A stretch of 64,000 nucleotides of DNA from an uncultured Magnetovibrio sp. Its GTDB lineage: Bacteria; Pseudomonadota; Alphaproteobacteria; Rhodospirillales; Magnetovibrionaceae. The DNA lies in assembly GCA_964451415.1 (NCBI GenBank), contig CAYVHU010000014.1, forward strand, positions 6,521 through 70,520, given 5' to 3'. Both the position numbers and the translations under genes were made by a program. The notes beneath the pieces were generated by a model. It was not told where the DNA came from. It saw nothing but the letters and a program-made list of their open reading frames with translations, and did not search any database. This document shows positions 1,438 through 39,112 of the stretch, in pieces; the first letter of the stretch is position 1, and every line of letters starts with the position of its first letter.

Positions 1438-1446
1438 GAAAAGCCG

Positions 1447-2403
1447 ATGGGATGCCGGCGGATTGAGGAAGGACCGGCACCGCGTTCGCTTGGGGTGTTC
1501 CTGGAAATGCTGGCGGCCGAACGTGGTGCGGCGTTCAATACGCTGGAAGGCTACCGCCGCGATCTTGTGGATTTTGCGGCCTTTGCGCAGCGCCGCAAGA
1601 TCGAACTTGAGGATGCGGACGCACAGACTATTCGCGCTTACCTCAAGCATTTGTCGGCGCGCGGCATGGCGGCGCGGACCCAGGCCAGACGTCTGTCGGC
1701 CCTGCGCCAGTTCTATCATTTCCTGTTTGCCGAGCGTTTGCGCGCCGACGATCCCAGCGTTGCGATCGATGGTCCCAAAGCCGGTCGGCCCCTGCCCAAG
1801 TACCTTTCCGAAAAAGAGGTCGAGCGTCTATTGACGTGCGCCGCCAAACACAAGGGGGTGGAGGGCAAGCGGTTGGTGGCGTTGATGGAAATTCTCTATG
1901 CCACGGGGTTGCGCGTGTCGGAACTGGTGGGGCTGCCGGTGGATGCGCTTTCGCGTGACGGACAGGTTCTGATCGTGCGGGGCAAGGGTGCGAAGGAGCG
2001 CATGGCTCCTTTGAGTGAACCGGCGCGCGATGCGATTGCGGCGTATCTTAAGGTGCGGACGCATTTCATTGCACGCACCGTGAAAAGCGTACCGTCCCGG
2101 ATCACATCACGTTATCTGTTTCCCTCGCGCGCGAAGCAGGGCTTTTTGACGCGGGCCCGGTTTGCGCAAATTCTCAAGGCCCTGGCCGTTGATGCCGAAC
2201 TGGATCCGCGGCGCGTGTCTCCCCATGTTTTGCGCCATTCCTTCGCCAGCCATCTTCTGGCCCATGGCGTGGACCTGCGCGCCTTGCAACAGATGCTGGG
2301 TCATGCGGATATCTCCACCACGCAAATTTATACCCATGTTCTGGATGAAAGGCTTAAGCGTCTGGTACAAAGCGCGCACCCCCTGGCGAAGCAAGAGCCT
2401 TGA
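1447..2403 (+). CDS. xerD: site-specific tyrosine recombinase XerD
   Basis: N-terminal core-binding segment 'FLEMLAAERGAAFNTLEGYRRDL'. C-terminal catalytic region 'VSPHVLRHSFASHLLAHGVDLRALQQMLGHADISTTQIYTHV' (HxxR ... nucleophile Y), typical of XerC/XerD. About 318 aa. Confidence 0.9.
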   Translation: MGCRRIEEGPAPRSLGVFLEMLAAERGAAFNTLEGYRRDLVDFAAFAQRRKIELEDADAQTIRAYLKHLSARGMAARTQARRLSALRQFYHFLFAERLRADDPSVAIDGPKAGRPLPKYLSEKEVERLLTCAAKHKGVEGKRLVALMEILYATGLRVSELVGLPVDALSRDGQVLIVRGKGAKERMAPLSEPARDAIAAYLKVRTHFIARTVKSVPSRITSRYLFPSRAKQGFLTRARFAQILKALAVDAELDPRRVSPHVLRHSFASHLLAHGVDLRALQQMLGHADISTTQIYTHVLDERLKRLVQSAHPLAKQEP

Positions 2404-2445
2404 AGCCCCTATCTTTCCTGAGGACCTGTATGTTAGAAAGCCGAC

Positions 2446-3402
2446 ATGAATCATTATCTGGATTTTGAAAAACCCATTGCCGAGTTGGAAGGCAAGATCG
2501 CCGAGCTGCGTCACTTGACGGGCGAAGGCGAAGTCAACATTGTCGAAGAAGTGGGCCGCCTGCAAGCCAAAGTGAACAAGCAGTTGCGCACCCTTTACAC
2601 CAAGTTGACGCCGTGGCAGAAGGCCCAGGTGGCCCGCCATCCGGATCGTCCCCATACCGTGGATTACATAGAAGAGATGATCACGGACTTCACGCCCTTG
2701 GCGGGGGACCGTTTATATGGGGAAGACGCCGCCATGATTGGTGGTCTGGGGCGCTTTCGCGGACGCTCGGTGATGATCATCGGGATCGAAAAAGGGGCCG
2801 ATACGGAAAGCCGTGTGAAGCACAATTTCGGTATGGCCAAGCCCGAAGGGTATCGCAAAGCCCAGCGTTTGATGAAAATGGCGGACCGTTTCAATTTGCC
2901 GGTGATTACCCTTGTGGATACCTCCGGCGCGTTTCCCGGCGCCGACGCCGAGGCCCGCGGTCAGGCGGAGGCCATCGCCAAATCCATCGAGGTCTGTTTC
3001 CAAATTCGTGTGCCTCTGGTTTGTGTCGTAATCGGCGAAGGGGGCTCCGGCGGTGCCATCGCCCTGGCCGGAGCCAACGCGGTTTTGATGCTGGAACACT
3101 CCATTTATTCGGTTATCTCGCCGGAAGGCTGTGCCTCGATTTTGTGGCGTGACGGGGCGATGAACAAGGAAGCCGCCGCTGCCTTGCGTTTGACCGTTCA
3201 AGACCTGGACCAGTTGGGGGTGATCGACGCGGTGATCCCCGAACCTCTGGGCGGGGCGCACCGCGACCCCAAAGCGGCGATCCACGCGGTGGCGGAAGAA
3301 ATTTCCCGCCAGTTAGAAGCGTTGACCGCCTTCGATGGCGGGCAACTGCGTGCCAAGCGGCGTGAGAAATTTCTCGAAATGGGGCAAAAGGGCCTGGGGT
3401 GA
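2446..3402 (+). CDS. accA: acetyl-CoA carboxylase carboxyltransferase alpha subunit
   Basis: '[18 protein letters not shown]', '[29 protein letters not shown]' and '[15 protein letters not shown]' are hallmark AccA segments. 318 aa. Confidence 0.93.
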
Positions 3403-3423
3403 GGGTGTCGCCTCGGGCTTTTC

Positions 3424-3494
3424 GTTCACAGCATGAACAAAGGATTGACGGCCCTTGTGAAGGGGCGTTAAAAAGGTGTGTTCAGTCTGTGAAC
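3424..3494 (+). promoter_or_regulatory. candidate promoter/operator: two copies of the palindrome GTTCA-N5-TGAAC flanking a sigma70-like TTGACG-17nt-TTAAAA
   Basis: GTTCAcagcaTGAAC at 3424..3438 and GTTCAgtctgTGAAC at 3480..3494. TTGACG at 3445..3450, a 17-nt spacer, TTAAAA at 3468..3473. It lies in the accA-regulator intergenic region. Confidence 0.35.
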
Positions 3495-3514
3495 GTGGGA
3501 GGAGCCCTAGGGTC

Positions 3515-4168
3515 GTGTCCGAACAAGGCGGCGTAAAAGGTGAACTGAAGCTGACGGACCGCACTATGTTGGGTCTGTTGGCGGAGCTTGAAGACAGCAA
3601 GGCTGTGACCCAGCGCGGTCTGGCCGTACGGCTCGGCGTTGCTTTGGGCTTGGTCAACAGTTTGCTGAAACGTGCGATACGAAAGGGTCTGGTCAAGGTC
3701 GTTCAGGTGCCGGCCAGGCGCTACGCCTATTACGTCACGCCCAAGGGTTTCGGCGAGAAAAGTCGTTTGGTGGCGGAATACCTTTCCAGTTCCTTGGACT
3801 TTTTCCGTCAGGCGCGCGATGAATTTTCGGCTGTTTACGCTGCCGCGGAAGCTCGTGGTTTGAGCCGCGTGGTTTTTTTCGGCACGGGGGAACTGGCGGA
3901 AATCGCTATGTTGTCGGCGCGCGACAGCGGCCTTGATGTTGTGGGCGTTGTCCAGCCCGGGGCTAATCAGGCGCGTTTTTCAGGTCTTTCGGTGATTAAT
4001 AGCTTAGATGCGCTTAAGGACATGGACATTGAAGCGGTGGTCATCACCGGCACCGATGATCCGCAACGCGCCTATACTTTATTGCGCGAGCATTTCGCCG
4101 ATGGGCGTATTTTGGTCGCGCCGTTGCTGCACGTCAGCCGCCAACCCGATGGGGAGGGCGCACAATGA
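3515..4168 (+). CDS. winged-helix (MarR-like) transcriptional regulator with a C-terminal Rossmann-like domain. The start is ambiguous (track 3476, GTG 3515, ATG 3566).
   Basis: wHTH segment 'AVTQRGLAVRLGVALGLVNSLLKRAIRKGLVKVVQVPARRYAYYVTPKGF', then 'RVVFFGTGELAEIAMLSA...VVGVVQP'. AGGAG at 3500..3504 precedes GTG 3515. The track start at 3476 would overlap the second palindrome and the putative -10. The stop overlaps the next start (ATGA). Confidence 0.6.
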   Translation: MSEQGGVKGELKLTDRTMLGLLAELEDSKAVTQRGLAVRLGVALGLVNSLLKRAIRKGLVKVVQVPARRYAYYVTPKGFGEKSRLVAEYLSSSLDFFRQARDEFSAVYAAAEARGLSRVVFFGTGELAEIAMLSARDSGLDVVGVVQPGANQARFSGLSVINSLDALKDMDIEAVVITGTDDPQRAYTLLREHFADGRILVAPLLHVSRQPDGEGAQ

Positions 4169-4662
4169 AGGCGTGGTTCGTGGTGCGCACCAAGACCGGC
4201 GCGGAAGATCGCGCGCGGTGGCATTTGAACAATCAGGATTTTGAGGTTTATCTGCCTCGATATCGCAAGACCATCCGTCACGCGCGCAAGACCTCAACCG
4301 TGTTGCGCGCGCTGTTTCCGGGATATTTGTTTGTGCGCATGGACACCGAACAGCAACGCTGGCGCGCCATCAACGGCACGCTGGGGGTCATTTCCCTGGT
4401 GCAGCTTGGCGATGGCCCATGTGCGATTTCCGACGGGATCGTCAACGCCGTTCGCGAACGTGAAGAAGGCGGTGTGGTGAGCTTGGCTCCCAACGGCCTG
4501 AAACCCGGAGACCACGTCCGCGTGCGCGAAGGTGTGTTCGCCGATCACACGGCCTTGCTGGCGGAAGTGTCCGACGACAGACGTGTGATCTTGCTTTTAA
4601 ACCTGATGGGCCGCGAAGTGCGCGTCAGTGCAAGCAGAGAAGACCTCGCCAAGGCGTCTTAA
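4165..4662 (+). CDS. NusG-family operon-specific antiterminator, RfaH-like (NGN + KOW domains)
   Basis: 165 aa. 'WFVVRTKTGAEDRARWHL...', 'LFPGYLFVRMD' (NGN), 'PGDHVRVREGVFADHTALL' (KOW) and 'LLLNLMGREVRVS' parallel the E. coli RfaH architecture. It sits directly upstream of the glycan operons. Confidence 0.75.
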   Translation: MKAWFVVRTKTGAEDRARWHLNNQDFEVYLPRYRKTIRHARKTSTVLRALFPGYLFVRMDTEQQRWRAINGTLGVISLVQLGDGPCAISDGIVNAVREREEGGVVSLAPNGLKPGDHVRVREGVFADHTALLAEVSDDRRVILLLNLMGREVRVSASREDLAKAS

Positions 4663-22939: not shown

Positions 22940-24745
22940 ATGAATTTCATGCATGAAGCCCTCAATTATATTCGCGAGGAAGCGAAATTATTCGCGTTGT
23001 TCCTCGGCTTGTCGCTCTTTCTGGCTCTCAGCGAGGGCTTGAGCGTTTCCCTGCTCATTCCCATCCTCGGGGCAGGTGGTGGCGGGGATACATTGTCGTC
23101 ATTGCCGGTTATCGGGCATTTTTTCAGGCCTTTGATGCAAATGAACGTTTCGCAGCGCATTTTGACGGTATCGGTCTTGTTATCCGCAGTGCTTGTTGTC
23201 CGTGGAGGATTGCAGTATGCAACCCAAATCCTTAGTGCCACATTGCCCTTGCGGATTCAGCGCAGAATCATGACGCAGGTGTTCGATCTTTTGATGCATG
23301 TGCAGTTGAATTATTTGCATGGGAAAAAAATCGGTGAACTCAAAACCTTGATTCAGGAACATCCCGTTCGCGTGGCTACGGCTTTGAGGAGTATCGCGGA
23401 TATCGTTTCAAGCTTCATTTTAATTTTTATTTACATGCTGTTGATGATTGCCATTTCCTGGCAGATTACCATCGTGACGATAGGGTTTGTCGGGGTTCTG
23501 CTGCTGATTTTGCGCTGGATCAGTGCGCGGCGTCTTGTTTTTGCTGGAACCCAGTTGTCAAAGACCATGGACAGGATGCATGAGGTCTTTTTTGGGGCGA
23601 TTCAGGGGGTGAAGCTGGTGCGTCTGGCCAATGCCGAAACGCGGATGAGCGATGAGTTCACGACGGCTGTAAATAATTTTTACGCCGTGGATTTAAAGCG
23701 ATACCAGATCGGTGAATTGCAATCTCCACTGTTTATGACCCTGGCCGGGCTGTTTGTCTGTGCGATTTTGATATTCGGTGCCTTAACGCAAAGTGGTAGC
23801 GCTTGGGTAGTCTTGGCCTTGATGTTTATCATCAGCTTGTATCGGATGCTTGGTCCCGCCAGCCGGATCGTCACCGCGCAGGTGTCGATTCACGCCAACA
23901 AGGATTCGTTCCAAAGATTGAAAAGTTTGTTTGCCGAGGCGACGGCAATGCGCCAGAAAAACGGCACGATCCGGGCAAGCGGATTGAACACGGGCATTTG
24001 TTTTGAGGACGTTACCTTTTCGTATCCGGCAACGGATGTTCCCGCCGTCCGCAATCTTTCCTTGATTATACCAGTGGGTAAAATGGTTGCGTTGGTGGGG
24101 CCATCTGGCAGCGGCAAAAGTACCATAGTCGGATTGGTGGCGCGTTTGTTCGATCCTCAAAAAGGACGTATTATGATTGATGGCGAGGATCTCAAAGATC
24201 TTGAAATCGGATCCTGGCGCCGGCGCATCGGGACGGTGACGCAAGAAACCTTCCTGTTCAACGACACCATATACAATAACATTTCGTTCGGACGCGACGA
24301 TGTGCCTCTGTCCGAAGTGCGTATGGCGGCGAAGTGGGCGGCGGCCGACACTTTTATCGAAGTCCTTCCCGATGGGTATGAAACGCGGGTTGGTGAGCGT
24401 GGCGCACGCCTTTCAGGCGGCCAGGCCCAGCGCCTGGCTCTGGCGCGCGCCATTATCAACAATCCGGACTTTCTGATTCTGGATGAGGCCACCAGTCATC
24501 TGGATAGCCTGAATGAACAGGTGATTCAAAAAACAATACAAGCCATGCATGGCAAAAAAACAATCCTTGTTGTCGCGCATCGCCTATCAACCATCAGAAA
24601 TGCCGACATGATTGCCGTCGTGAAAAACGGCACTATCGTGGAAACGGGCGTACATGAGGACTTGATGCAAAAACCTAGTGTTTACAAACGTCTGTTCGAA
24701 ACCCAGAGTCTGGAACTGACCGATATCGACACGGCAACATCATGA
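22940..24745 (+). CDS. MsbA-like ABC exporter (fused permease + ATPase)
   Basis: Six-TM N-terminal half. 'LVGPSGSGKST' (Walker A), 'LSGGQAQRLALARA' (signature) and 'FLILDEATSHLD' (Walker B). Confidence 0.88.
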   Translation: MNFMHEALNYIREEAKLFALFLGLSLFLALSEGLSVSLLIPILGAGGGGDTLSSLPVIGHFFRPLMQMNVSQRILTVSVLLSAVLVVRGGLQYATQILSATLPLRIQRRIMTQVFDLLMHVQLNYLHGKKIGELKTLIQEHPVRVATALRSIADIVSSFILIFIYMLLMIAISWQITIVTIGFVGVLLLILRWISARRLVFAGTQLSKTMDRMHEVFFGAIQGVKLVRLANAETRMSDEFTTAVNNFYAVDLKRYQIGELQSPLFMTLAGLFVCAILIFGALTQSGSAWVVLALMFIISLYRMLGPASRIVTAQVSIHANKDSFQRLKSLFAEATAMRQKNGTIRASGLNTGICFEDVTFSYPATDVPAVRNLSLIIPVGKMVALVGPSGSGKSTIVGLVARLFDPQKGRIMIDGEDLKDLEIGSWRRRIGTVTQETFLFNDTIYNNISFGRDDVPLSEVRMAAKWAAADTFIEVLPDGYETRVGERGARLSGGQAQRLALARAIINNPDFLILDEATSHLDSLNEQVIQKTIQAMHGKKTILVVAHRLSTIRNADMIAVVKNGTIVETGVHEDLMQKPSVYKRLFETQSLELTDIDTATS

Positions 24746-25815
24746 CAAACGACTTCCCTCTTAACGTTTTGCTGGTTACCTTTCAAACGGGGTGCGCAAA
24801 TTCGATTGTTTTGATCGCCAAGGCGCTACGCCAGCGCGGCGCACGCATCCATGGCGTATGCGCGGGGGCTTGCGTTCGCGTGTTTGAAAGAGAAGCCGTT
24901 TCCCATCAGGTTCTGGACGTCAATGTGTCCGATGCGCAAATTGATGCGCTCCTCGATGCACAGGCGCCGGATCTGGTGATCACGGGTTCAAACGCCGCCA
25001 ATCGTTTTGAATTCAATTTTCGCCTAAGGGCGCGTCAGCGCGGCGTACAGGTGATAACGACCTTGGACTATTGGAGCGCCTACCAGGGACGTTTCCACGA
25101 TAACGAAACCGGTGTGACGTCGCTTCCGGATAAACTTCTGGTCACCGACGCGGTAATGCGCGATGAGTTGCGCAAGGCCGGTTTCAAGGATGCGCGGATC
25201 GAGATTGTCGGAAATCCGTATTTTGAACATTTGGCCCTTGAGGCGTCGGCGACAAGAAATCCGCGAATACGTGCGTACAAACGGATTTTGTTTACGTCCC
25301 AGCCAATCGCTGCTCTGTTTGGGACATCTTCGAAAAATCCTCGCTTTCTCGGCTACGAAGAAGGTGGCGTTTTTGACGCCCTGGTTGACGACCTCAAGGC
25401 CCGGCCCGAGTGCCGTCTATACGTCAAACCGCATCCCAGAGAAGATCTTACGGTGTGGAGGGGACGTTTGAAAAAAGCGAAAGCGGTAGAGAAACAGATT
25501 TTCTTCATTGGGGGGCGTGGTCGCTCCCTGGGCCTGTTGCAAGCGGCCGATGTCGTGGTTGGGATGACCAGCAATATGTTGCTGGAAGCACTCGTTGTCG
25601 GCACGGCGGCGGTATCGTTCCAACCCGACACGAACGGCAAATTTGAATTTTATGGGACTTCGTCGGGACTGGTACCGACGGCGCGCAAGATCGACAGGTT
25701 GCCCCCCTTGATTGATGAGGCCCTGACACGCAGCGCGACGACGGTACGCGAAAAGGTTGGTGTTTTATATAAAGGCGCCCTTGCGCGCTGCATTGACGTC
25801 ATAACGGCGAAATAA
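24742..25815 (+). CDS. hypothetical GT-B-like protein (candidate glycosyl/NulO transferase). Its 3' end is duplicated as a decayed remnant at 29969..30200.
   Basis: 'RILFTSQP...', 'LYVKPHPRED' and 'LLQAADVVVGMTSNMLLEALVVGTAAVSFQP' resemble the C-terminal half of GT-B transferases. 357 aa. Confidence 0.5.
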   Translation: MTNDFPLNVLLVTFQTGCANSIVLIAKALRQRGARIHGVCAGACVRVFEREAVSHQVLDVNVSDAQIDALLDAQAPDLVITGSNAANRFEFNFRLRARQRGVQVITTLDYWSAYQGRFHDNETGVTSLPDKLLVTDAVMRDELRKAGFKDARIEIVGNPYFEHLALEASATRNPRIRAYKRILFTSQPIAALFGTSSKNPRFLGYEEGGVFDALVDDLKARPECRLYVKPHPREDLTVWRGRLKKAKAVEKQIFFIGGRGRSLGLLQAADVVVGMTSNMLLEALVVGTAAVSFQPDTNGKFEFYGTSSGLVPTARKIDRLPPLIDEALTRSATTVREKVGVLYKGALARCIDVITAK

Positions 25816-25828
25816 CGAATAGCACGGG

Positions 25829-26620
25829 GTGAACGCGTTGAAAGTTGCAGCCATTATTGAAGCCCGCATGCGTTCTTCTCGCCTGCCGGGCAAGCTCATG
25901 TTGCCTATTGTGGAGAAGCCTGCTCTGGCGCATTTGTTCGAGCGGTTGAGGCGATGCAAAAAACTTGACGATATCATCCTTGCTACCACCGAAACGCCCT
26001 GCGACGTTGTGTTGGCGGATTTTGCGCAACGTCAGGACGTAAATTTCTTCCGTGGTAGCGAAAATGACGTCATGTCGCGGGTTTTATATGCTGCGCGTGA
26101 ATTTGATGTTGATGTCATCGTCGAGATCACCAGCGATTGCCCTTTGGTTGACACTGCCATGGTGGACGCGGCTATAGATCAGTTTTTTACTGGGAAACTG
26201 GAGTATTTATCCAACGTTATCAAGCGCACGTATCCGCGCGGTCTGGATGTCCAGATTTTCACACGCACGGCTCTTGAGCGGACGTTTGAGAGCACCGGCG
26301 ATCCGGTGGACCGGGAACATGTTTCGTTGTTTATTTACGAACACCCGGAAATTTTCAGACTGGGTCATTTCGGATGTGAAGGCACGCGGTTGGAGTGGCC
26401 AGAGCAAAGAATCACTCTGGACACGCCCGAGGATTATTTTGTGATCCGGTCCGTTTTTGAAAATCTTTATCCCGAAAATCCGGAATTCGGTTATGCGGAC
26501 ATCCATGGGTTTTTGCAAGAAAACCCTGATATTGCCGCGATAAACATGGAAATTGTCCAAAAGCGGGCGCGTGGTTACGATTTCACGCTCAAGGCCCGTC
26601 AGGCCTTGGGGTTGGAGTAG
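25829..26620 (+). CDS. SpsF-type cytidylyltransferase (CTP_transf_3 family; candidate CMP-pseudaminic acid synthetase), copy 1
   Basis: 'VAAIIEARMRSSRLPGKLMLPI', 'ITSDCPLVD' and 'TLDTPEDYFVIRSVFE'. Confidence 0.8.
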   Translation: MNALKVAAIIEARMRSSRLPGKLMLPIVEKPALAHLFERLRRCKKLDDIILATTETPCDVVLADFAQRQDVNFFRGSENDVMSRVLYAAREFDVDVIVEITSDCPLVDTAMVDAAIDQFFTGKLEYLSNVIKRTYPRGLDVQIFTRTALERTFESTGDPVDREHVSLFIYEHPEIFRLGHFGCEGTRLEWPEQRITLDTPEDYFVIRSVFENLYPENPEFGYADIHGFLQENPDIAAINMEIVQKRARGYDFTLKARQALGLE

Positions 26621-26639
26621 GTTGAGCGGGTATCATCGC

Positions 26640-26666
26640 CTGTAAGCGGATTGCCGGGGCTTACAG
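26640..26666 (+). other. stem-loop CTGTAAGC-N11-GCTTACAG just downstream of cytidylyltransferase copy 1 (conserved in copy 2)
   Basis: 8-bp perfect inverted repeat with no trailing T-run. The identical structure occurs at 31032..31058. Confidence 0.4.
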
Positions 26667-26917
26667 TTATGGCTGTCAGGAACATGGGGAACACGTCATG
26701 CGCTCTCGCCGATGAGGCCGAAGACGTTCAGTCAACGGCTGGAATGTATCGGCGTCAACGCCCGTCAGGGTGCGATATTGTCGTTTGGGAATAAGCCACT
26801 CGCTGTTACTTTAGCATCGGAAGGGCCTCCTGCGCCCTTCCTCCGTTGAATCACGGATCAGTTAACAAAGATTCACCAGACTTTTGCAACAGGTCTAATA
26901 ATTGGAAGTTTTTCGCT

Positions 26918-28069
26918 ATGATTAAGTACTGCACTCAATGCCTCTATCCCGAGACCAAACCGGATCTTCATATTGACGCCGAAGGCGTGTGTAGTGCCTG
27001 TCGCAGTTATGAAAAAAGAACAAAAATAAATTGGGAAGATCGTGCCCTGGATTTAGAGCGAATCCTTGAAAAATATCGGAATCGAGATGGTTCAAATTAT
27101 GATTGTATCGTTCCCGTAAGCGGTGGAAAAGATAGTACGTATCAAGTTCTAAAAGTTTTAGAATTCGGGTTAAACCCGCTGTGCGTAACAGGCACGACTT
27201 GTTCTTTATCTGAGATTGGGCGTCGAAATATAGAGAATTTAAAAAATCTCGGTGTGGACTATATCGAGGTCACGACCAATCCCATTGTACGAAGGAAAAT
27301 GAACCGTTTGTGCTTGCGCACGATCGGTGATATTTCCTGGCCGGAACACGTTAAAATCTTCACAATTCCCGTTCAGGTCGCTGTGAAATATAACGTTAAG
27401 CTCATCATCTGGGGGGAAAATCCTCAACATGAGTATGGCGGTCCTGCCGCTTCGCAACAAAGCAATGTGCTCGACCGGAATTGGTTGGAAGAGTTCGGTG
27501 GCCTTCTTGGTTTTCGCGTGACTGATTTTATCGATCAGGAAGGAATTGAAAAACGACACCTTATTCCTTTCACGTACCCGAGTGACAAGGAACTTCAGGC
27601 GGTGGGAGTAACGGGCCTGTTTCTCGGCTACTATGTTCCCTGGGATGGGTACACCAATGCCTTGTATGCGCAAGCCTACGGGTTCGAGACCTATCCAAAT
27701 GTCGTGGAAGGCTCTCTCGCAGACTATGAAAATTTAGATAATCACCATATGGGTATTCATGATTATTTTAAATATTTGAAGTTTGGCTTTGGTCGTGCGA
27801 GTGATATTGCATCCAACCATATTCGAAGGGGGCGTCTCCGTCGGGCAGATGCGCTCAATCTTATTAAACGACATGACGGTAAATTTCCGTGGACCTATCT
27901 TGGAAAACCTGTTGAGGACATCCTTTCGGAAATTTCGGTTCCCTTTGATGAATTCATTAAAATTTGCGATCAGTTTACGAACAAGAGATTGTTTGAATGC
28001 GATCATGACAACGTTTTGATCAAGGATAAGAACTTGAACTTGACCAAGACGAATGACGATAATTTGTAA
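26918..28069 (+). CDS. N-acetyl sugar amidotransferase (WbpG/PseA-like PP-loop ATP pyrophosphatase)
   Basis: N-terminal zinc-ribbon 'CTQCLYPETKPDL...GVCSACRSYE' and PP-loop 'CIVPVSGGKDSTYQ'. AT-rich gene. ATG 26918 chosen over the longer track start. Confidence 0.8.
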   Translation: MIKYCTQCLYPETKPDLHIDAEGVCSACRSYEKRTKINWEDRALDLERILEKYRNRDGSNYDCIVPVSGGKDSTYQVLKVLEFGLNPLCVTGTTCSLSEIGRRNIENLKNLGVDYIEVTTNPIVRRKMNRLCLRTIGDISWPEHVKIFTIPVQVAVKYNVKLIIWGENPQHEYGGPAASQQSNVLDRNWLEEFGGLLGFRVTDFIDQEGIEKRHLIPFTYPSDKELQAVGVTGLFLGYYVPWDGYTNALYAQAYGFETYPNVVEGSLADYENLDNHHMGIHDYFKYLKFGFGRASDIASNHIRRGRLRRADALNLIKRHDGKFPWTYLGKPVEDILSEISVPFDEFIKICDQFTNKRLFECDHDNVLIKDKNLNLTKTNDDNL

Positions 28070-28695
28070 TGCGTGTCGCCATCATAGATTATGGCCTTTG
28101 CAATTTAGGATCCGTATGCCGTGCCGTTGAAGTCAATGGCGGCTCGCCGTTCATAACGGCGGAGCCCAAGGAAGCGGTAACGGCCGACAAATTTATTTTG
28201 CCGGGCGTTGGTGCTTTTCCCGATGCGATGTCCAATCTTAATGCTTCTGGAATGAGCGAAGCCTTGCGCGAAATGGTGCTTGGTAAATCACGTCTCTTCC
28301 TTGGCGTGTGTCTTGGTATGCAACTTCTTGCGGACAGTTCGACGGAGGGGGGGCGAACTCCGGGTTTGGGTTGGGTGCCGGGGATCGTGAAAAAACTTGA
28401 ACCAGCAGAAGAAACACCTAAAAAAAGAGAGCGTGTGCCTCATGTCGGCTGGAATGAGGTTATTCCGAACGCCGCAAACCGATTATTTGCGAACATAGAC
28501 AAGGAAGCGGATTTTTATTTTGTTCACAGTTACCATTTCGATGTTTTATCGGAAGATCATGTTTTAGCGACAACGCCATATTGCAACGGTTTCGTGTCGG
28601 CGGTACAAAAAGACAATATTTTTGGGACGCAATTTCATCCCGAAAAAAGCCAAAAGAACGGTCTGAATTTGTTGGCTAATTTCCTTGCCCTTTAA
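28069..28695 (+). CDS. HisH-like glutamine amidotransferase subunit (glycan-locus paralog, WbuY-type)
   Basis: 'MRVAIIDYGLCNLGSVCRAV', 'ILPGVGAFPDAM', 'FLGVCLGMQLL' (catalytic Cys) and 'FGTQFHPEKS'. Confidence 0.85.
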   Translation: MRVAIIDYGLCNLGSVCRAVEVNGGSPFITAEPKEAVTADKFILPGVGAFPDAMSNLNASGMSEALREMVLGKSRLFLGVCLGMQLLADSSTEGGRTPGLGWVPGIVKKLEPAEETPKKRERVPHVGWNEVIPNAANRLFANIDKEADFYFVHSYHFDVLSEDHVLATTPYCNGFVSAVQKDNIFGTQFHPEKSQKNGLNLLANFLAL

Positions 28696-28697
28696 CA

Positions 28698-29453
28698 ATG
28701 CTTAAATCTCGCATCATCCCGACCTTGTTGTATCGAGACCTTGGTTTGGTCAAAGGGATCAGTTTTGATTCCTGGCGGCGTATCGGTCCTGCGATGCAAG
28801 CCATAAAAGTTTACAATATGCGCGATGTCGATGAACTTGCGTTTCTCGATATCACGGCGACCAACGATCACCGGGAGCCGGATTATGCTCTTATCGAAAG
28901 CTTGGCGACGGAATGTTTCGCACCGTTTGCGGTCGGTGGCGGAATTTGTAAGCTGGAACACGTTCGGAAATTATTAATGGCGGGAGCGGACAAGGTCATC
29001 ATCAATACAGCTGCGGTTCAGTCTCCGGAATTTATCGGCGCCGTCGCGGATAAATTTGGAAGTCAATGCGTTGTCGTTTCTATCGACGTGCGAAAATCAA
29101 AAGATATTGGGTATGAGGTCTATACCGAATCCGCGACCAAGCCGACAGGTTTTGGCCTTGTGGAAATCATCTCTAAAGCCGAAGCGTGCGGAGCCGGTGA
29201 AATTTTGATTACGTCCATCGAACGTGATGGAACCATGAAAGGGTGCGATTTGGATCTGATCGAAATTGCATGTGAAAGTGTTTCCATCCCGGTTATAGCC
29301 TCTGGCGGGGTTGGCAATTACGACCATATGGGCCAAGCCTTGAGCGTTGGCGCTTCCGCCGTTGCTGCGGCCAGCATTTTCCATTTTACGCAACAAACGC
29401 CCTTGGAGGCTAAAAAGTATCTGCGACGTCAAGGCTATAGCGTTAGGCTTTGA
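28698..29453 (+). CDS. HisF-like cyclase subunit (glycan-locus paralog, WbuZ-type)
   Basis: 'RIIPTLLYRDLGLVKG', 'DELAFLDITA', 'GGGICKLEHVRKLLMAGADKVIINTAAV', 'GAGEILITSIERDGTMKG' and 'PVIASGGVGN'. Confidence 0.85.
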   Translation: MLKSRIIPTLLYRDLGLVKGISFDSWRRIGPAMQAIKVYNMRDVDELAFLDITATNDHREPDYALIESLATECFAPFAVGGGICKLEHVRKLLMAGADKVIINTAAVQSPEFIGAVADKFGSQCVVVSIDVRKSKDIGYEVYTESATKPTGFGLVEIISKAEACGAGEILITSIERDGTMKGCDLDLIEIACESVSIPVIASGGVGNYDHMGQALSVGASAVAAASIFHFTQQTPLEAKKYLRRQGYSVRL

Positions 29454-29515
29454 CGCAGGCGAAAGCCTGCTTGCGATCGGAAATGAAATGATGTTGGAAT
29501 CTCCTGACGTTTTGG

Positions 29516-29893
29516 TTGTGGTTGAATTCGAGGGTCAGATTGCGCAGGCTCTTGAACGCACGATGGCACATACGAAAGACGATGACCCTGTGCCCCGGTG
29601 CGTGGCTGTCGTTTGGCGAAGGGAATCCGCACAAAGCCCTGTCCACCTTCATGCGCTTGCACAAAAGCGCCATCACCCCGAGGACAAAGTTGGAGCCGAT
29701 GGACATTGACGAAGAGTTGGAAAACCTGGCTCCCGATCTGATCGCGTTCTCCGTGGAGGAGTTGTCCCGGACCAGGCTTGCACAGGCAAACCCATCCGCG
29801 CCACCAGCCAATCAGAACCAGCCAAAAGTCGGAAGGAACGATCCGTGCCCCTGCGGCTCCGGAAAGAAATTCAAAAAATGCAGCCTGAACTGA
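29516..29893 (+). CDS. small SEC-C-motif protein, possibly a gene remnant
   Basis: C-terminal '[17 protein letters not shown]' is the SecA-type SEC-C metal-binding motif. The N-terminal part looks non-genic, and an overlapping frame (29478..29709) is also open, which suggests a frameshifted relic. Confidence 0.35.
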
Positions 29894-29968
29894 AATCATA
29901 AACCGCGTGGTTTCCCGGACGTTTACGAAGAAATCAAGATTTACGGAACAGCAAATCGCCTTTATTTT

Positions 29969-30200
29969 GAAGCCCTCGTTGTCGGCACGGCGGTGGTATC
30001 GTTCCAACTCGACACGAACGGCAAATTTGAATTCTATGGGACTTCGTTGTGATTAAACAGCTAGTGCCGATGGCGCGCAGGACCGACAGGTTGGCCCCCT
30101 TGATCGATGAGGCCCTGATGCGCAGCGTGACGGCGGTGCGCGACAAGGTCGGTGTTTTGTATAAAGACGGCCCTTGCGCACTGCATTGACGGTATACGGC
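29969..30200 (+). pseudogene. decayed 3' remnant of the GT-B-like gene (paralog of 25585..25815)
   Basis: Translates 'EALVVGTAVVSFQLDTNGKFEFYGTS' (compare 'EALVVGTAAVSFQPDTNGKFEFYGTS' in the intact gene), then hits stops ('tgattaa') and frame breaks. No N-terminal part is present. Confidence 0.7.
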
Positions 30201-30220
30201 GAAATAACGAATAGTACGGG

Positions 30221-31012
30221 GTGAACACGTTGAAAGTTGCAGCCATTATTGAAGCCCGCATGCGGTCCTCACGCCTGCCGGGGAAGATCATGTTGCCTAT
30301 TGTGGGGAAGCCCGCCTTGGCGCATTTGTTCGAGCGGTTGAGGCGATGCAAGAATCTTGACGATGTCATCCTTGCAACCCCTGAAACGCCCTGCGACGTT
30401 GTGTTGGCGGACTTTGCGCAGCGTCAGGGCGTAAATTTTTTCCGTGGTAGCGAAAACGATGTCATGTCGCGGGTTTTATATGCCGCGCGTGAATTTGATG
30501 TCGATGTCATCGTCGAGATCACCAGCGATTGCCCTTTGGTTGACCCTGCCATGGTGGATGCGGCCATCGACCAGTTTTTTTCCGAGAAACTGGAGTATTT
30601 ATCCAACGTTATCAAGCGCACGTATCCGCGCGGTCTGGATGTCCAGATTTTCACTCGCACGGCTCTGGAGCGGGCGTTTGAGAACACCGGCGATCCGGTT
30701 GACCGGGAACATGTTGCGTTGTTTATTTACGAACACCCGGAAATTTTCAAACTGGGTCATTTCGGATGCGAAGGTACGCGGTTGGAGTGGCCAGAGCAGA
30801 GAATCACCCTGGACACGCCCGAGGATTATTTTGTTATCCGGTCCGTTTTTGAGAACCTTTATGCTGAAAACCCGGAGTTCGGTTATGTGGATATCCATGG
30901 GTTTTTGCAAAAAAACCCTGATATCGCCGCGATAAACATGGAAATTGTCCAAAAGCGAGCACGCGGTTACGATTTCACGCTCAAGGCCCGTCAGGCCTTG
31001 GGGTTGGAGTAG
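30221..31012 (+). CDS. SpsF-type cytidylyltransferase, copy 2
   Basis: 263 aa, same length as copy 1. By eye about 17 substitutions (for example A3T, E29G, D70G, T109P) and no indels. Confidence 0.8.
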   Translation: MNTLKVAAIIEARMRSSRLPGKIMLPIVGKPALAHLFERLRRCKNLDDVILATPETPCDVVLADFAQRQGVNFFRGSENDVMSRVLYAAREFDVDVIVEITSDCPLVDPAMVDAAIDQFFSEKLEYLSNVIKRTYPRGLDVQIFTRTALERAFENTGDPVDREHVALFIYEHPEIFKLGHFGCEGTRLEWPEQRITLDTPEDYFVIRSVFENLYAENPEFGYVDIHGFLQKNPDIAAINMEIVQKRARGYDFTLKARQALGLE

Positions 31013-31031
31013 GTTGAGCGGGTATCATCGC

Positions 31032-31058
31032 CTGTAAGCGGATTGCCGGGGCTTACAG
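31032..31058 (+). other. stem-loop CTGTAAGC-N11-GCTTACAG (copy 2)
   Basis: Identical to 26640..26666. Confidence 0.4.
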
Positions 31059-31142
31059 TTATGGCTGTCAGGCAAACGGGTTTGCCCCGGCACGCATGCG
31101 CAGGCTTACCCTTTATATTGTGCGTGTGATCCCGACCTCCTG

Positions 31143-31457
31143 GTGCACCGGCATTTTTCGGATGCCTTCGGTGTCGGCAATACGGACCTTGATGCTGCTC
31201 AAATGTTAAAAGATGTGTGCCTTGATACGGTTAGTATATGCACGCCGACCGCTACCCATGAAGTCATTCTCAAGCAAGGCCTGGATGCGGGCGTACGTGC
31301 GATTTGGTGTGAAAAGCCCTTGGGTCGGGACGTGTTGCCTTTGCAGCGACGGGTTGCCCAGGCCGTTGATATCGACACTTCGGAGGATTACGCCCGGGTG
31401 ACAACCATGGTCGAGGTGAACGTCAGGGCCGATATGCGCACCAGGGAAGGACAATAG
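31143..31457 (+). pseudogene. fragment of a Gfo/Idh/MocA-family oxidoreductase
   Basis: 'LDTVSICTPTATHEVILKQGLDAGVRAIWCEKPL' is the end of the N-terminal Rossmann domain of this family. The GxGxxG start and the whole C-terminal domain are missing (104 aa in total). Confidence 0.55.
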
Positions 31458-31458
31458 C

Positions 31459-33378
31459 TTGAGTACGAAGCAGAACAAGGTTGTGGTTTTTCGCTGGTTG
31501 TCATGGATGAATTTGCCTGTGGCCTTGCTGATGCGTTTGTTTGGTATGCGCGTTGTGTTCATTGAGACAACAAATCGGCTGCGCTCTCTGTGCGGACATG
31601 CTCGCCTTGACGCACTGGGCCTGGAATGGGTCAATTATCCCGCTTACAAAGGATATCAAGTCGATGCCGAACTGAAGCTTGTGCCCGCTTTTGCGCTGAA
31701 GATTCTTGAGACTTCTTTTGGCACCCTTGAATGTGATGTGCTTATACAAAACGTTTCAGCATTACAAGGCGACGAGGGGAAGGCACGGGCTGTGTTGTTG
31801 GCTGTTTTGCAAACGTCTCTAGAGCCATACGCTCACTCTTATGCCCTTGCAGAATATTTTCAAGAAAACGGGATGCAGGCCTACATTTTCCAGGCACGCG
31901 ATGTGTTTTGTGCAATGCTGAACGATCCCAGGATTACAAGGGTTCGTAATCTCAATCCGTTCTTTCGCGTGCCTTGGGTGCTTTTGAGACAAATTGCCAA
32001 TGTGATTTCGGCAAGATCTATGCGGCGGCTTCGGCAGGTTCTCAGAACACGAACCCAAGGACATGCGACGCATTGCGCTGATGTGGAAAGCACCCCTGCT
32101 TACGCGCCAAAGGTTTTGTATTTCCCCCACAAAGGGATCAGTTACGGGGACTTGTTCCTTAAGGATCAATACTATGTCGACGATCCGGACAGCCCTTTCC
32201 ATCGGGAGCGGATCCAGCATGTGGAATTGAACTGGATGTTGTCACAAGCTGAGCGTAAGTCCATTGCCGCAGATTATGAAAAGCATGGTCTTAATGTGGA
32301 GTTTGTGGATCTCCCTCAAATTTCGGTAGACACTGTTGTGCGCGGTATGGTCGTTATGGCCAAGGTGCTATTTGGGCGCCCGAGATTTCTGACCAAGACC
32401 TTGATGTTTGCCCGAATTTTGAAACAAGTGAGTGCGTGTGAGAAAGCTTTTTCACATTATTCAGGTGCTCAGGTCGCACTCCTTGGGCATGACTATTTAT
32501 TTCCGAAGATCGCTATCGTTGCTCTTCAAGCTATTGGTGTTAAAGTTGTTGCCGTGCAGGAAAGATTTGTTAGTGCATTTATTCCTTCGCATTCTATACT
32601 TGCTGACGTTTATTGTGTTCACGGAAATCTTGTTAAACGACAACTTGAAAAAGCACCCTACGCGCACATTAAGACTTTGAGTGTTACCGGAGATCCCAGA
32701 GCGTCTAAAATTTTTCAATATCAAGATGTGGCTCTGGCGGAAAGAGCAGAGCGGTTTTCGGCTTTTCGTAACGTCTGTCTTGTCCTTGATTTTCATTCCG
32801 ATCCGGACCCCTTCGCAAATGCGATGTACTGCCATGCCTGCAACTGGTCCAGTAATATATATTTTTACGAGGTCGTGGCCAGGCTTGCCGAGGATCACCC
32901 CGAATGTATGTTTATTATTCGAGGCAAAAATGCAAAGTGGTTGAATATCCCCGCATTGCGGAGCGTTGCCTTACGCTTGGACGCCTATCCCAATGTGATT
33001 GTTGATCAGCGTTACGATTTAATGGATCGTTCTTATTGTCTGGCTGCAATGGCAGATATTATTATTGCCCGTCAGACGTCACTTTGTGACCAGTGTCTGG
33101 CGGCAGGTCGCCCTGTCTTGATATATGATGTGTTGGAAAATGGTGATCCCATTGTTGCCCCGTGGTTCGATTATGAGCCGTTTTCGATTCTGATCAACAA
33201 TGAACAAGATCTGCACCGACGCTTTCATGATGTACTTTATGCAGATGATTATATATCAGAAGAATTGTTTCGTGAAATGCGTCAGGACCACTACAACGTC
33301 ACATCGGATGCAGACGTTATCGCCGCCCCTCAACGTGTGAAATCAGTCGTTCATGGGGTTTTGGATCGGAACCTTTAA
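31459..33378 (+). CDS. large hypothetical protein (639 aa), possibly a GT-B-like/polymer-forming transferase
   Basis: AT-richer ORF. C-terminal half 'VALLGHDYLFPKIAIVALQAIGVKVVAVQERF...', 'FIIRGKNAKW' and 'MADIIIARQTSLCDQCLAAGRPVLIYD' resemble Rossmann-like transferase halves. No firm family assignment. Confidence 0.5.
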   Translation: MSTKQNKVVVFRWLSWMNLPVALLMRLFGMRVVFIETTNRLRSLCGHARLDALGLEWVNYPAYKGYQVDAELKLVPAFALKILETSFGTLECDVLIQNVSALQGDEGKARAVLLAVLQTSLEPYAHSYALAEYFQENGMQAYIFQARDVFCAMLNDPRITRVRNLNPFFRVPWVLLRQIANVISARSMRRLRQVLRTRTQGHATHCADVESTPAYAPKVLYFPHKGISYGDLFLKDQYYVDDPDSPFHRERIQHVELNWMLSQAERKSIAADYEKHGLNVEFVDLPQISVDTVVRGMVVMAKVLFGRPRFLTKTLMFARILKQVSACEKAFSHYSGAQVALLGHDYLFPKIAIVALQAIGVKVVAVQERFVSAFIPSHSILADVYCVHGNLVKRQLEKAPYAHIKTLSVTGDPRASKIFQYQDVALAERAERFSAFRNVCLVLDFHSDPDPFANAMYCHACNWSSNIYFYEVVARLAEDHPECMFIIRGKNAKWLNIPALRSVALRLDAYPNVIVDQRYDLMDRSYCLAAMADIIIARQTSLCDQCLAAGRPVLIYDVLENGDPIVAPWFDYEPFSILINNEQDLHRRFHDVLYADDYISEELFREMRQDHYNVTSDADVIAAPQRVKSVVHGVLDRNL

Positions 33379-36110: not shown

Positions 36111-36449
36111 TTGGGGTCTCGCTTGTTGGCGGTGCTGGTGCGCGCCATGCTGTCCCAACCCGATGTGTTGGTTCTGGATGAAGCGACGAGCCATTTGGAT
36201 ACCATTACCGCGTCGGCAATCCAGCGTGCAATTCAAGAAGTTTGTACCCATCACACGGTGGTGATCGTTGCGCATCGCTTGTCCACGATTCGCTACGCTG
36301 AGCGCCTTGTGGTGATGGAAGCGGGTAAAGTTGCTGAAATTGACAACCATGACGAATTGTTTGAAAAGGGTGACGTTTACCGGCGCCTGTTTGATAGCCA
36401 GAAGTTGGATCTGAACGTGAACGAGGGCGCACAACATGACATCGCTTAA
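36111..36449 (+). pseudogene. C-terminal remnant of an ABC-transporter ATPase domain
   Basis: 'PDVLVLDEATSHLD' (Walker B), 'VVIVAHRLSTIRYAERLVVMEAGKVAEIDNHDELF' and 'YRRLFDSQ'. No Walker A, signature motif or TM domain. In-frame stops lie just upstream (36075, 36084). Confidence 0.6.
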
Positions 36450-38365: not shown

Positions 38366-39112
38366 ATGATCGCAGCGATTTTGATCGGCCGCGAAGGATC
38401 CACCGGGTTTCCCGGCAAGAACGTATACCCTGTTTTGGGCCGTCCTCTGGTTGCCTATCCGTTGATGGCCGCCCAGGCGGCACCCAGCATTGATCGCACC
38501 TATGTGTCCACCGACAGCGAAGCGATCAAGACGATTGCGCATGATTTCGGTGTGCACGTTATCGATCGTCCAGATTATCTTTGCACCAAGGAAGCCCTGG
38601 GTGAAGATGCCTATGTTCATGCCTATGGGCTGATCAAGGCGCAGTGCGAAGAAAAGGGCGAGGAACTGGAACTGCTGGTCTTGCTGATGGCCAACGCACC
38701 GACCATTTCGAGCGTGCAGTTGGAAGAGGGCATCGCCGTGCTGCGCAAGCAACCCAAAACCGACAGTGCCGTGACGGTGAGTTGTTACAACATGTGGAGT
38801 CCGTTGCGGGCACGCAAGGTGGATGCCTCTGGGCATTTGCAGCCGTTCGTTCCCTTTGAGACTTTTGGGAACCCCAAAACCTTGAATTGCGACCGTGACA
38901 GTCAAGGTGAGGTGTGGTTCGCCGATATGGGCGTATCCATCGTGCGGCCTGAAAACCTCGACACCATGGAAGATGGTTTGTTGCCGCAAAAGTGGATGGG
39001 GAAAAATATCTGGCCAATCAAGAACGTTGGCGGGCTGGATGTGGATTATAATTATCAAATGCCACAGGCCGAATTCTGGTTAAAGGAAAATGGCATTCAA
39101 AAGGCCGATTAG
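38366..39112 (+). CDS. cytidylyltransferase (CTP_transf_3 family), the fourth member in this window
   Basis: 'MIAAILIGREGSTGFPGKNVYPVLGRPLVAYPL' and 'LLMANAPTI'. 248 aa. Confidence 0.7.
   Translation: MIAAILIGREGSTGFPGKNVYPVLGRPLVAYPLMAAQAAPSIDRTYVSTDSEAIKTIAHDFGVHVIDRPDYLCTKEALGEDAYVHAYGLIKAQCEEKGEELELLVLLMANAPTISSVQLEEGIAVLRKQPKTDSAVTVSCYNMWSPLRARKVDASGHLQPFVPFETFGNPKTLNCDRDSQGEVWFADMGVSIVRPENLDTMEDGLLPQKWMGKNIWPIKNVGGLDVDYNYQMPQAEFWLKENGIQKAD

Follow-up and report, generated by a model that had tools for sequence, protein, structure and literature searches.

Organization of the repeat-bracketed locus

We analyzed a 64,000-nt stretch (hereafter the window) of contig CAYVHU010000014.1 from an uncultured Magnetovibrio sp., which belongs to a 2.48-Mb metagenome-assembled genome (MAG) of 27 contigs with 99.5% completeness and 0.02% contamination. 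The genes of the window all lie on the plus strand and together make up one large nonulosonic-acid glycan island. Within it, a 1.1-kb direct repeat, each copy of which carries a gene for an SpsF-type cytidylyltransferase, brackets a segment encoding a sugar amidotransferase with HisH- and HisF-type subunits; the MAG contig (~70.6 kb) covers both repeat copies. This arrangement is probably a scar of a familiar kind, left in a pseudaminic/legionaminic-acid glycan island by an old duplication-insertion event. The repeat and its contents are laid out as follows:

24742..25815, plus strand: intact glycosyltransferase (GT)-like 'surface carbohydrate biosynthesis' gene, 357 aa, with weak Glyco_trans_4 and TIGR04396 matches
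25585..26680, plus strand: direct repeat copy 1, comprising the GT 3' end, the first SpsF gene (SpsF1) and ~22 codons of a Gfo/Idh/MocA gene (Gfo)
25829..26620, plus strand: SpsF-type cytidylyltransferase copy 1, 263-aa open reading frame (ORF), PF02348 at 108 bits
26573..26680, plus strand: 108-bp tract, 100% identical to 30965-31072, covering 48 nt at the 3' end of SpsF plus the Gfo relic of 60 nt
26621..26680, plus strand: decayed Gfo/Idh/MocA 5' end after SpsF1 (AGIIACKRIAGAYSYGCQ), cut at about codon 22 by the insert
26681..29968, plus strand: inserted mosaic segment of 3288 bp, delimited by junctions J1 (26680/26681) and J2 (29968/29969)
29969..31072, plus strand: direct repeat copy 2, delimited by blastn self-match and alignment
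29969..30205, plus strand: pseudogenised 3' fragment of the GT-like gene, with 25 substitutions over 230 sites, three indels and several stops
30221..31012, plus strand: SpsF-type cytidylyltransferase copy 2 (SpsF2), 263-aa ORF, PF02348 at 115 bits
31013..31457, plus strand: frameshifted Gfo/Idh/MocA pseudogene relic, about residues 1-154 of ~330, including a 104-aa ORF at 31143-31457

A blastn comparison of the window against itself returned a single repeat pair, 25585-26680 versus 29969-31072, with 91.6% identity over 1105 columns, 83 mismatches and 5 gap openings. A preliminary description of this DNA had proposed such a comparison, and its repeat coordinates proved exact, as did its account of each copy as a GT 3' end, a 263-aa cytidylyltransferase and ~60 bp with an identical 8-bp-stem hairpin. 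The duplicated unit begins at GT codon 282, includes SpsF and stops at about Gfo codon 22; its edges are sharp, with identity dropping to background within a few bases at both ends. Residual homology past these edges was considered and rejected, as no collinear match beyond the outer flanks was significant against shuffled controls (right flank, p=0.35; left-flank match, non-collinear). Perfectly identical blocks between the copies measure 108, 69, 42, 37, 34, 33, and 32 bp. The longest of them contains 0 differences versus ~8 expected (P about 2e-4), even though 60 of its bases are pseudogene sequence. Recent gene conversion is the simplest, and a probable, explanation of this tract, and the repeat copies would therefore still interact.

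Two maintained cytidylyltransferases next to a decaying GT fragment

Both SpsF copies are full-length and score above the PF02348 cut-off of 22.6 bits. They match the solved structure 6OEW over residues 4-236 (E 1e-46) and retain the motifs ARMxSSRLPGK, RGS, DCP, and REH, and both are predicted to be of the cytidine monophosphate (CMP)-nonulosonate synthetase type. The Bacillus subtilis SpsF is a putative CMP-legionaminic-acid cytidylyltransferase needed for sugar transfer, not for synthesis, an assignment for which the evidence is genetic only (PMC7439481).

The two copies differ at 17 amino acids and 57 nucleotides, distributed over codon positions as 11:6:40, with no indel in either coding sequence. 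Depending on the method, the ratio of nonsynonymous to synonymous divergence (dN/dS) is 0.11-0.18, and synonymous divergence (dS) is 0.18-0.26. They are 94% identical to each other and at most 59% identical to any other protein among 5.8 billion, with homologs in the 40 nearest genomes searched reaching no more than 49% identity. The SpsF copies are each other's closest relatives and the duplication is therefore specific to this lineage. A third, possibly hybrid, SpsF variant was discarded, since the third member of the 90% cluster is a shorter start call of copy 2. When the 17 replacements were polarised against 27 homologs, derived states at conserved sites were assigned to both copy 1 (I23L, G29E, G70D, and P109T) and copy 2 (I49V, T54P, G122E, S166A, and P215A). 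These replacements are evenly spread, with no asymmetry between the copies, and they affect nearly invariant positions in each of them (G29E and P109T in copy 1; T54P and P215A in copy 2).

Both SpsF ORFs are listed from a GTG codon, and a TTG three codons downstream (25838 and 30230) is the likely true start, giving MKVAAII... in copy 1. This start is favored by homolog N-termini (MKIGAIVE...) and by a GGGGTGA Shine-Dalgarno-like motif, whose context is conserved in copy 2; with it, the A3T difference would no longer fall within the protein.

Of the GT gene, the repeat contains the final 77 codons (codon 282, at 25585, onward), which copy 1 has intact and which in copy 2 are disrupted by an insertion of 8 bp, two indels of 1 bp and several stops. 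Divergence of this fragment amounts to 10.9%, and its substitutions fall on codon positions as 3:11:11 versus 11:6:40 in SpsF (Fisher p=0.03). At the indel rate of the GT fragment, ~10 indels would be expected per 792-bp neutral copy, whereas SpsF has none (P about 3e-5). From this pattern, purifying selection appears to have acted on both SpsF copies over most of their divergence, with the GT fragment drifting meanwhile. The preliminary description had put the cytidylyltransferases at equal length and ~17 residues apart, had noticed stops and indels in the GT fragment of copy 2, and had proposed that the former are maintained while the latter decays. All of this is borne out, the last point by the dN/dS that it had asked for, by the lack of SpsF indels and by the two codon-position profiles. 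Since the GT-fragment substitutions show no codon-position bias, the event itself should be old (dS about 0.2) and not a recent merger of alleles.

A Gfo/Idh/MocA relic and the ancestral gene order

The 60 bp after each SpsF stop translate to AGIIACKRIAGAYSYGCQ, and the N-termini of Gfo in relatives read AAIIGCGRIAGGYQ, the GxGxxG start of a Rossmann fold. The Gfo relic extends only after copy 2, where it runs unbroken over the repeat edge (31072/31073) and on to about residue 154, abutting the gene of a 639-aa protein; after copy 1, the insert cuts Gfo. Window positions 31092-31445 match residues 30-154 of the relatives' Gfo (tblastn E 1e-10 to 1e-15), and the 104-aa ORF is a fragment of the GFO_IDH_MocA N-domain (PF01408, 33.6 bits versus a cut-off of 24). 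The ~60 bp with a hairpin that the preliminary description had seen downstream of the cytidylyltransferases are thus present, but they are the decayed Rossmann N-terminus of Gfo/Idh/MocA.

The hairpin itself, CTGTAAGC-N11-GCTTACAG with an 8-bp stem, lies at 26640-26666 and 31032-31058. It was rejected as a terminator or regulatory element, given a fold z of −0.06 relative to shuffled sequences, the lack of a T-tail and a stem made of the Gfo codons CKRIAGAY. We likewise discarded its GTAAGCG/GCTTAC stretches as ends of an IS66-family insertion sequence (IS), the match being of only 7 nt, explained by Gfo codons and thus coincidental. In copy 2 only, a GC-rich 9-bp stem (GCCGGGGC...GCCCCGGC) spans the repeat edge in the Gfo relic at 31044-31092; its 3' arm lies outside the repeat, it has no T-tail, and it is probably incidental.

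In the loci of the closest homologs (L027-L030), a GT-like gene (355-364 aa) is followed by SpsF, Gfo/Idh/MocA and then a DegT aminotransferase gene. The GT-like gene of the window is homologous to the one preceding SpsF in these relatives (tblastn E 1e-44 to 1e-53). Among the fetched loci, Gfo comes immediately after SpsF in 12, and L027-L030 have the GT-like gene ahead of SpsF as well.

The inserted segment: an amidotransferase trio and a dead IS66-family end

Five features were delineated in the insert:

26918..28069, plus strand: WbuX/PseA-type N-acetyl sugar amidotransferase, 383-aa form (TIGR03573, 341.3 bits versus a cut-off of 203.2)
28069..28695, plus strand: HisH-type glutaminase subunit, WbuY-like (TIGR01855, 229 bits versus a cut-off of 105)
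28698..29453, plus strand: HisF-type cyclase-like subunit, WbuZ/AglZ-HisF2-like (PF00977, 215 bits)
29582..29926, plus strand: remnant of the 3' end of an IS66-family element, ~345 bp, with the C-terminal 103 codons of a UPF0149/SEC-C gene (stop at 29893) and the right inverted repeat
29927..29968, plus strand: 42-bp spacer of unassigned origin between the IS end and copy 2, with peptide EEIKIYGTANRLYF

The genes of the trio abut or overlap (28069; 28695/28698). The best-scoring models for the HisF paralog, TIGR03572 and NF038364, give 280.6 and 262.8 bits versus cut-offs of 299.7 and 310, respectively. Homologs of WbuX are 382-383 aa long and up to 73% identical to it. The WbuX ORF as listed has 407 aa and a TTG start (extension 26846-26917), and the ATG at 26918 is likelier by homolog length. 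GC content at third codon positions (GC3) is 0.45 for WbuX, 0.46 for HisH, 0.51 for HisF, and 0.73 for the SEC-C ORF, as compared with 0.57-0.62 for PseC, the ABC exporter, GT, SpsF1, and SpsF2. The proposal that the trio is an inserted cassette is therefore strengthened: it breaks the conserved GT-like/SpsF/Gfo synteny, its GC3 is lower, and the dead end of an IS66-family element comes with it. No remnant of a donor-side gene was found in the WbuX leader (26681-26917, 237 bp) or at 29454-29581.

WbuX/HisH/HisF sets are associated with acetamidino sugars in O-antigen and flagellin-glycan loci, where acetamido groups are converted to acetamidino groups. By analogy, the trio, located between pseC and pseG/H/I, would most likely yield an acetamidino derivative of pseudaminic acid. 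HisH and HisF genes also lie directly upstream of an SpsF paralog (35% identical), near a PseG homolog, at positions 122-2223 of locus L020 (genome G005, of the same family), and a WbuX-like gene precedes SpsF and Gfo in locus L015. The association of amidation genes with an SpsF-type gene thus seems to recur, in different orders.

The sequence between the trio and copy 2, which had been described as a SEC-C relic, is indeed a relic, but of the 3' end of an IS66-family element; together with the Gfo relic, this IS end is what the present analysis newly identifies. The SEC-C ORF is 78% identical in amino acids to residues 116-218 of P0243, a 218-219-aa UPF0149/YecA-plus-SEC-C protein. In 3/3 contexts retrieved, an intact homolog occupies the final position of an IS66-family element and overlaps the transposase stop, and the intact elements consist of HTH_Tnp_1, TnpB_IS66, the DDE_Tnp_IS66 transposase and then the UPF0149/SEC-C gene. 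From 29582 onward, the window aligns to the 3' ends of the IS copies in L038 (79% of nucleotides) and L036 (75%). Its right inverted repeat, CCCGGACGTTTAC at 29914-29926, aligns to CACCGGACGCTTAC of L038, L036, and L037, and similarity among the window and these loci ends at 29926, beyond which all diverge. The L038 element (1355-4434) ends in 15-nt inverted repeats that match perfectly (CGTAAGCGTCCGGTG and CACCGGACGCTTACG), and its target duplication measures 8 bp (GGATCATC). In tblastn searches, the L038 TnpA, TnpB, and TnpC proteins had no match in the window, and IS66 transposase is absent from the genome (0 matches to PF03050, whole genome). This remnant suggests that the foreign segment came from a locus earlier struck by an IS66-family element.

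An origin of the SEC-C relic from the genome's own secA was rejected, as only a 22-aa motif matches, at 59%. J2 was likewise rejected as an IS terminus, because the right inverted repeat stops at 29926, 42 bp short of it. The 42-bp spacer has no significant collinear nucleotide homology to the GT gene, and its peptide (EEIKIYGTANRLYF) fits the GT-family motif only loosely. As a side observation, the UPF0149/YecA-plus-SEC-C gene is terminal in IS66 elements of three unrelated metagenome contigs (L038, L036, and L037), and from these contexts it looks like a conserved IS66 passenger or accessory gene.

Surrounding genes of the island

The remaining genes and remnants annotated in the island are:

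11.8-14.1 kb, plus strand: LegC and NeuC-type genes, with radical S-adenosylmethionine tailoring genes after them
20696, plus strand: PseB
21691, plus strand: PseC
22940-24745, plus strand: ATP-binding cassette (ABC) exporter, HepA/MsbA/PglK-like
31459..33378, plus strand: 639-aa protein with no Pfam or NCBIfam family, abutting the truncated Gfo relic
33378, plus strand: PseG-PseH fusion
34907, plus strand: PseI
~36135-36416: remnant of an ABC-exporter C-terminal ATPase tail, 47% identical to residues 501-594 of the exporter at 22940-24745 (E 5e-28)
38366-39112, plus strand: PseF-like gene, among further tailoring genes

The 639-aa protein matches a 646-aa protein of L027 (tblastn E 6e-46). 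Homologs of it (24-27% identity) sit in similar nonulosonic-acid clusters, at 15773-17713 in L027, farther downstream of SpsF, and at 10838-12592 in L024, directly after SpsF. On this distribution, it appears to be an uncharacterised conserved component of such clusters. The ABC tail remnant, located between pseI and the next module, is another recombination scar. With the truncation of Gfo against the 639-aa gene, it reveals that the island has been remodelled repeatedly. Gene callers report as ORFs the four relics that we mark here as pseudogene remnants.

Origin of the arrangement

Copy 1 is continuous with the ancestral left context and copy 2 with the right one, and therefore the locus has exactly two novel junctions, J1 and J2. 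The analysis shows how the locus is built, which synteny is ancestral, its relics, its selection pattern and its IS remnant; in what order the events took place, by which mechanism and with what biochemical effect is inferred. The ancestral layout would have been PseB, PseC, ABC exporter, GT-like, SpsF, Gfo/Idh/MocA, and onward. A 3.3-kb foreign mosaic, carrying the trio and, from an IS66-family element, a dead right end, would then have been joined to Gfo at about codon 22 (J1) and to GT at codon 282 (J2), so that a 1.1-kb interval (GT from codon 282, all of SpsF, and Gfo as far as codon 22) came to lie on either side of the insert. The likely mechanism is one complex recombination, illegitimate or homology-facilitated, between two copies of the locus, either on sister chromosomes or as a donor allele and a recipient. 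Candidate routes include a complex illegitimate exchange with capture of foreign DNA, homology-facilitated illegitimate recombination with a donor allele, and Campbell-type integration of a circularised fragment. Later on, the redundant GT fragment and Gfo would have decayed, both SpsF genes would have been kept, and the last 108 bp would have been homogenised by gene conversion. Functionally, the Pse operon would have gained conversion of N-acetyl to N-acetimidoyl groups, along with two slightly different activating enzymes.

Several points weigh against this reconstruction. If the copies stem from different alleles, some of their 8% divergence could be older than the event, and the 108-bp identity could instead reflect selection on some other element. 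The ancestral order is taken from distant relatives (at most 59% amino acid identity), and no locus with an empty site came to light. J1 and J2 show no clear microhomology, the IS end lies 42 bp off J2, and the sequence does not reveal the route. Between copy 1 and the cassette, the link passes through the 108-bp identical tract, where the path is ambiguous for short k-mers.

The divergence between copies bears on a recent merger of two diverged alleles, in which a donor segment GT'-SpsF'-Gfo'(1-22)-cassette-IS end would have been acquired horizontally, by one homologous crossover plus one illegitimate join or by Campbell-type recombination of a circularised fragment, with most of the 8% divergence predating the event. 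The cassette and the IS remnant are clearly foreign, single-crossover integration yields exactly a repeat-insert-repeat structure, and the low dN/dS would then represent orthologous divergence. However, the GT fragment, devoid of third-position bias and bearing three indels and several stops, places a large share of the divergence after its truncation. Moreover, the databases contain no donor-like relative above 59% identity, and the 108-bp identical tract is not predicted; we thus consider such a merger unlikely. That conversion operates here is evident from the sharp identity edges and the 108-bp perfect tract, and the whole repeat could in principle be a conversion tract between two older, more divergent modules, of which the second had its GT' hit by IS66 and was then partly deleted. 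In favor of this reading, just 42 bp separate the IS end and the repeat edge, and the spacer peptide has the Gly-to-Glu spacing of the GT-family motif, but this resemblance is weak. Against such modules, the outer flanks lack significant residual homology, no Gfo-like sequence follows codon 22 after copy 1, and copy 2 and the Gfo relic agree with the left block in GC3, all of which makes conversion between them quite improbable. The old duplication-insertion therefore remains our preferred explanation.

Whether the repeats act today is a separate matter. The preliminary description had proposed that recombination between them would excise the cassette and switch the glycan chemistry. In such a switch, a RecA-mediated crossover would remove or multiply the cassette in part of the population, and the surface glycan would alternate between acetamido and acetamidino groups. 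The crossover is feasible: the repeats are in direct orientation, their perfect blocks of 108-32 bp suffice for homologous recombination, their interaction is implied by the signs of gene conversion, and an exchange at any point past 25815 would remove the cassette, keeping GT intact and making SpsF a hybrid. Current switching is the part that found no support: neither a hybrid SpsF protein nor a deletion contig is on record, and deletion is irreversible, amounting to loss and not to a switch. Besides, the arrangement has persisted through dS about 0.2, the 8% divergence suppresses recombination, no recombinase or integrase is found among the genes annotated at 11.7-47.8 kb, and there is no tRNA in the window. 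An active switch is, in our view, very improbable. Even less credence is due to an artefact of the assembly path, in which a chromosome without the cassette and a separate 4.39-kb circle, tandem array or second strain would have been threaded via the 108-bp tract. Other assemblies do break exactly in stretches identical between the copies. Yet J2 and the decayed GT fragment are present in two assemblies, J1 is present in a Logan contig, the 4.39-kb circle would have no replication gene, and the ~70.6-kb contig of this highly complete, scarcely contaminated MAG spans both copies. The inner junctions are also covered by contigs of other assemblies, VAPM010018244.1 and two Logan contigs from SRR6439372, which all match the window at 100% identity; VAPM010018244.1 crosses J2 at this identity, and a Logan contig confirms J1. 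A 43-mer from the identical tract had no match in exact scans of metagenome and genome contig collections.

Copy 2 is also recorded on a 4486-bp contig, considered here by its length alone. By arithmetic, this length equals the cassette plus unique copy 2 (4284 bp) plus 2 × 101 bp of shared tract, which is the value that an unresolved assembly-graph loop would give.

Significance and comparison with known systems

The old duplication-insertion event offers a clean example of a surface-glycan locus gaining a tailoring module, in which ancestral order, base-level breakpoints, a passenger IS end and decaying relics are all visible. It also illustrates that duplicate activating enzymes can be kept by selection long after such an event, and the SpsF pair is a candidate for comparing substrate specificity between paralogous CMP-nonulosonate synthetases. 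One may speculate that the copies have subfunctionalised, one serving the acetamido and the other the acetamidino nonulosonate, and that repeat recombination occasionally deletes or amplifies the cassette, causing heritable glycan heterogeneity; we deem this combination rather improbable.

The trio has the same genes in the same order as known WbuX/WbpG/PseA-type amidotransferase systems. As in WbuX/WbuY/WbuZ of E. coli O145, WbpG-HisH-HisF of P. aeruginosa O5 and PseA of Campylobacter, the amidotransferase has HisH and HisF alongside, inside a nonulosonic- or amino-sugar glycan locus. Unlike in those systems, the trio sits in a Pse operon between two cytidylyltransferase copies, inserted into Gfo/Idh/MocA and accompanied by an IS66 end. 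The SpsF copies, in turn, share with B. subtilis SpsF and 6OEW the family PF02348, the full-length match to 6OEW and the conserved motifs, but differ from the B. subtilis case in being two tandem-dispersed copies, each with 1-2 replacements at nearly invariant positions. The IS remnant resembles IS66-family elements in its 3' end with a terminal UPF0149/SEC-C gene and in its terminus type (GTAAGCG...CGCTTAC); in contrast to intact elements, it retains ~345 bp and no transposase, and is a fossil, not a mobile element.

Campbell-type integration and homology-facilitated illegitimate recombination are textbook routes to direct repeats flanking inserted DNA, with one sharp illegitimate junction. 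Unlike in Campbell-type integration, there is no vector, att site or recombinase here, the event is old, with repeats 8% diverged, and the mechanism is inferred. Overall, the locus is a known kind of mosaic scar and not a new kind of system. Like mosaic O-antigen, capsule and flagellin-glycan loci (E. coli/Salmonella, Acinetobacter K, and pneumococcal cps), it has gained a tailoring cassette modularly, with truncated genes and a dead IS end left behind. Unlike those loci, its insert is flanked by a 1.1-kb target duplication in which a whole gene is kept in two presumably functional copies, an outcome less usual than simple replacement.

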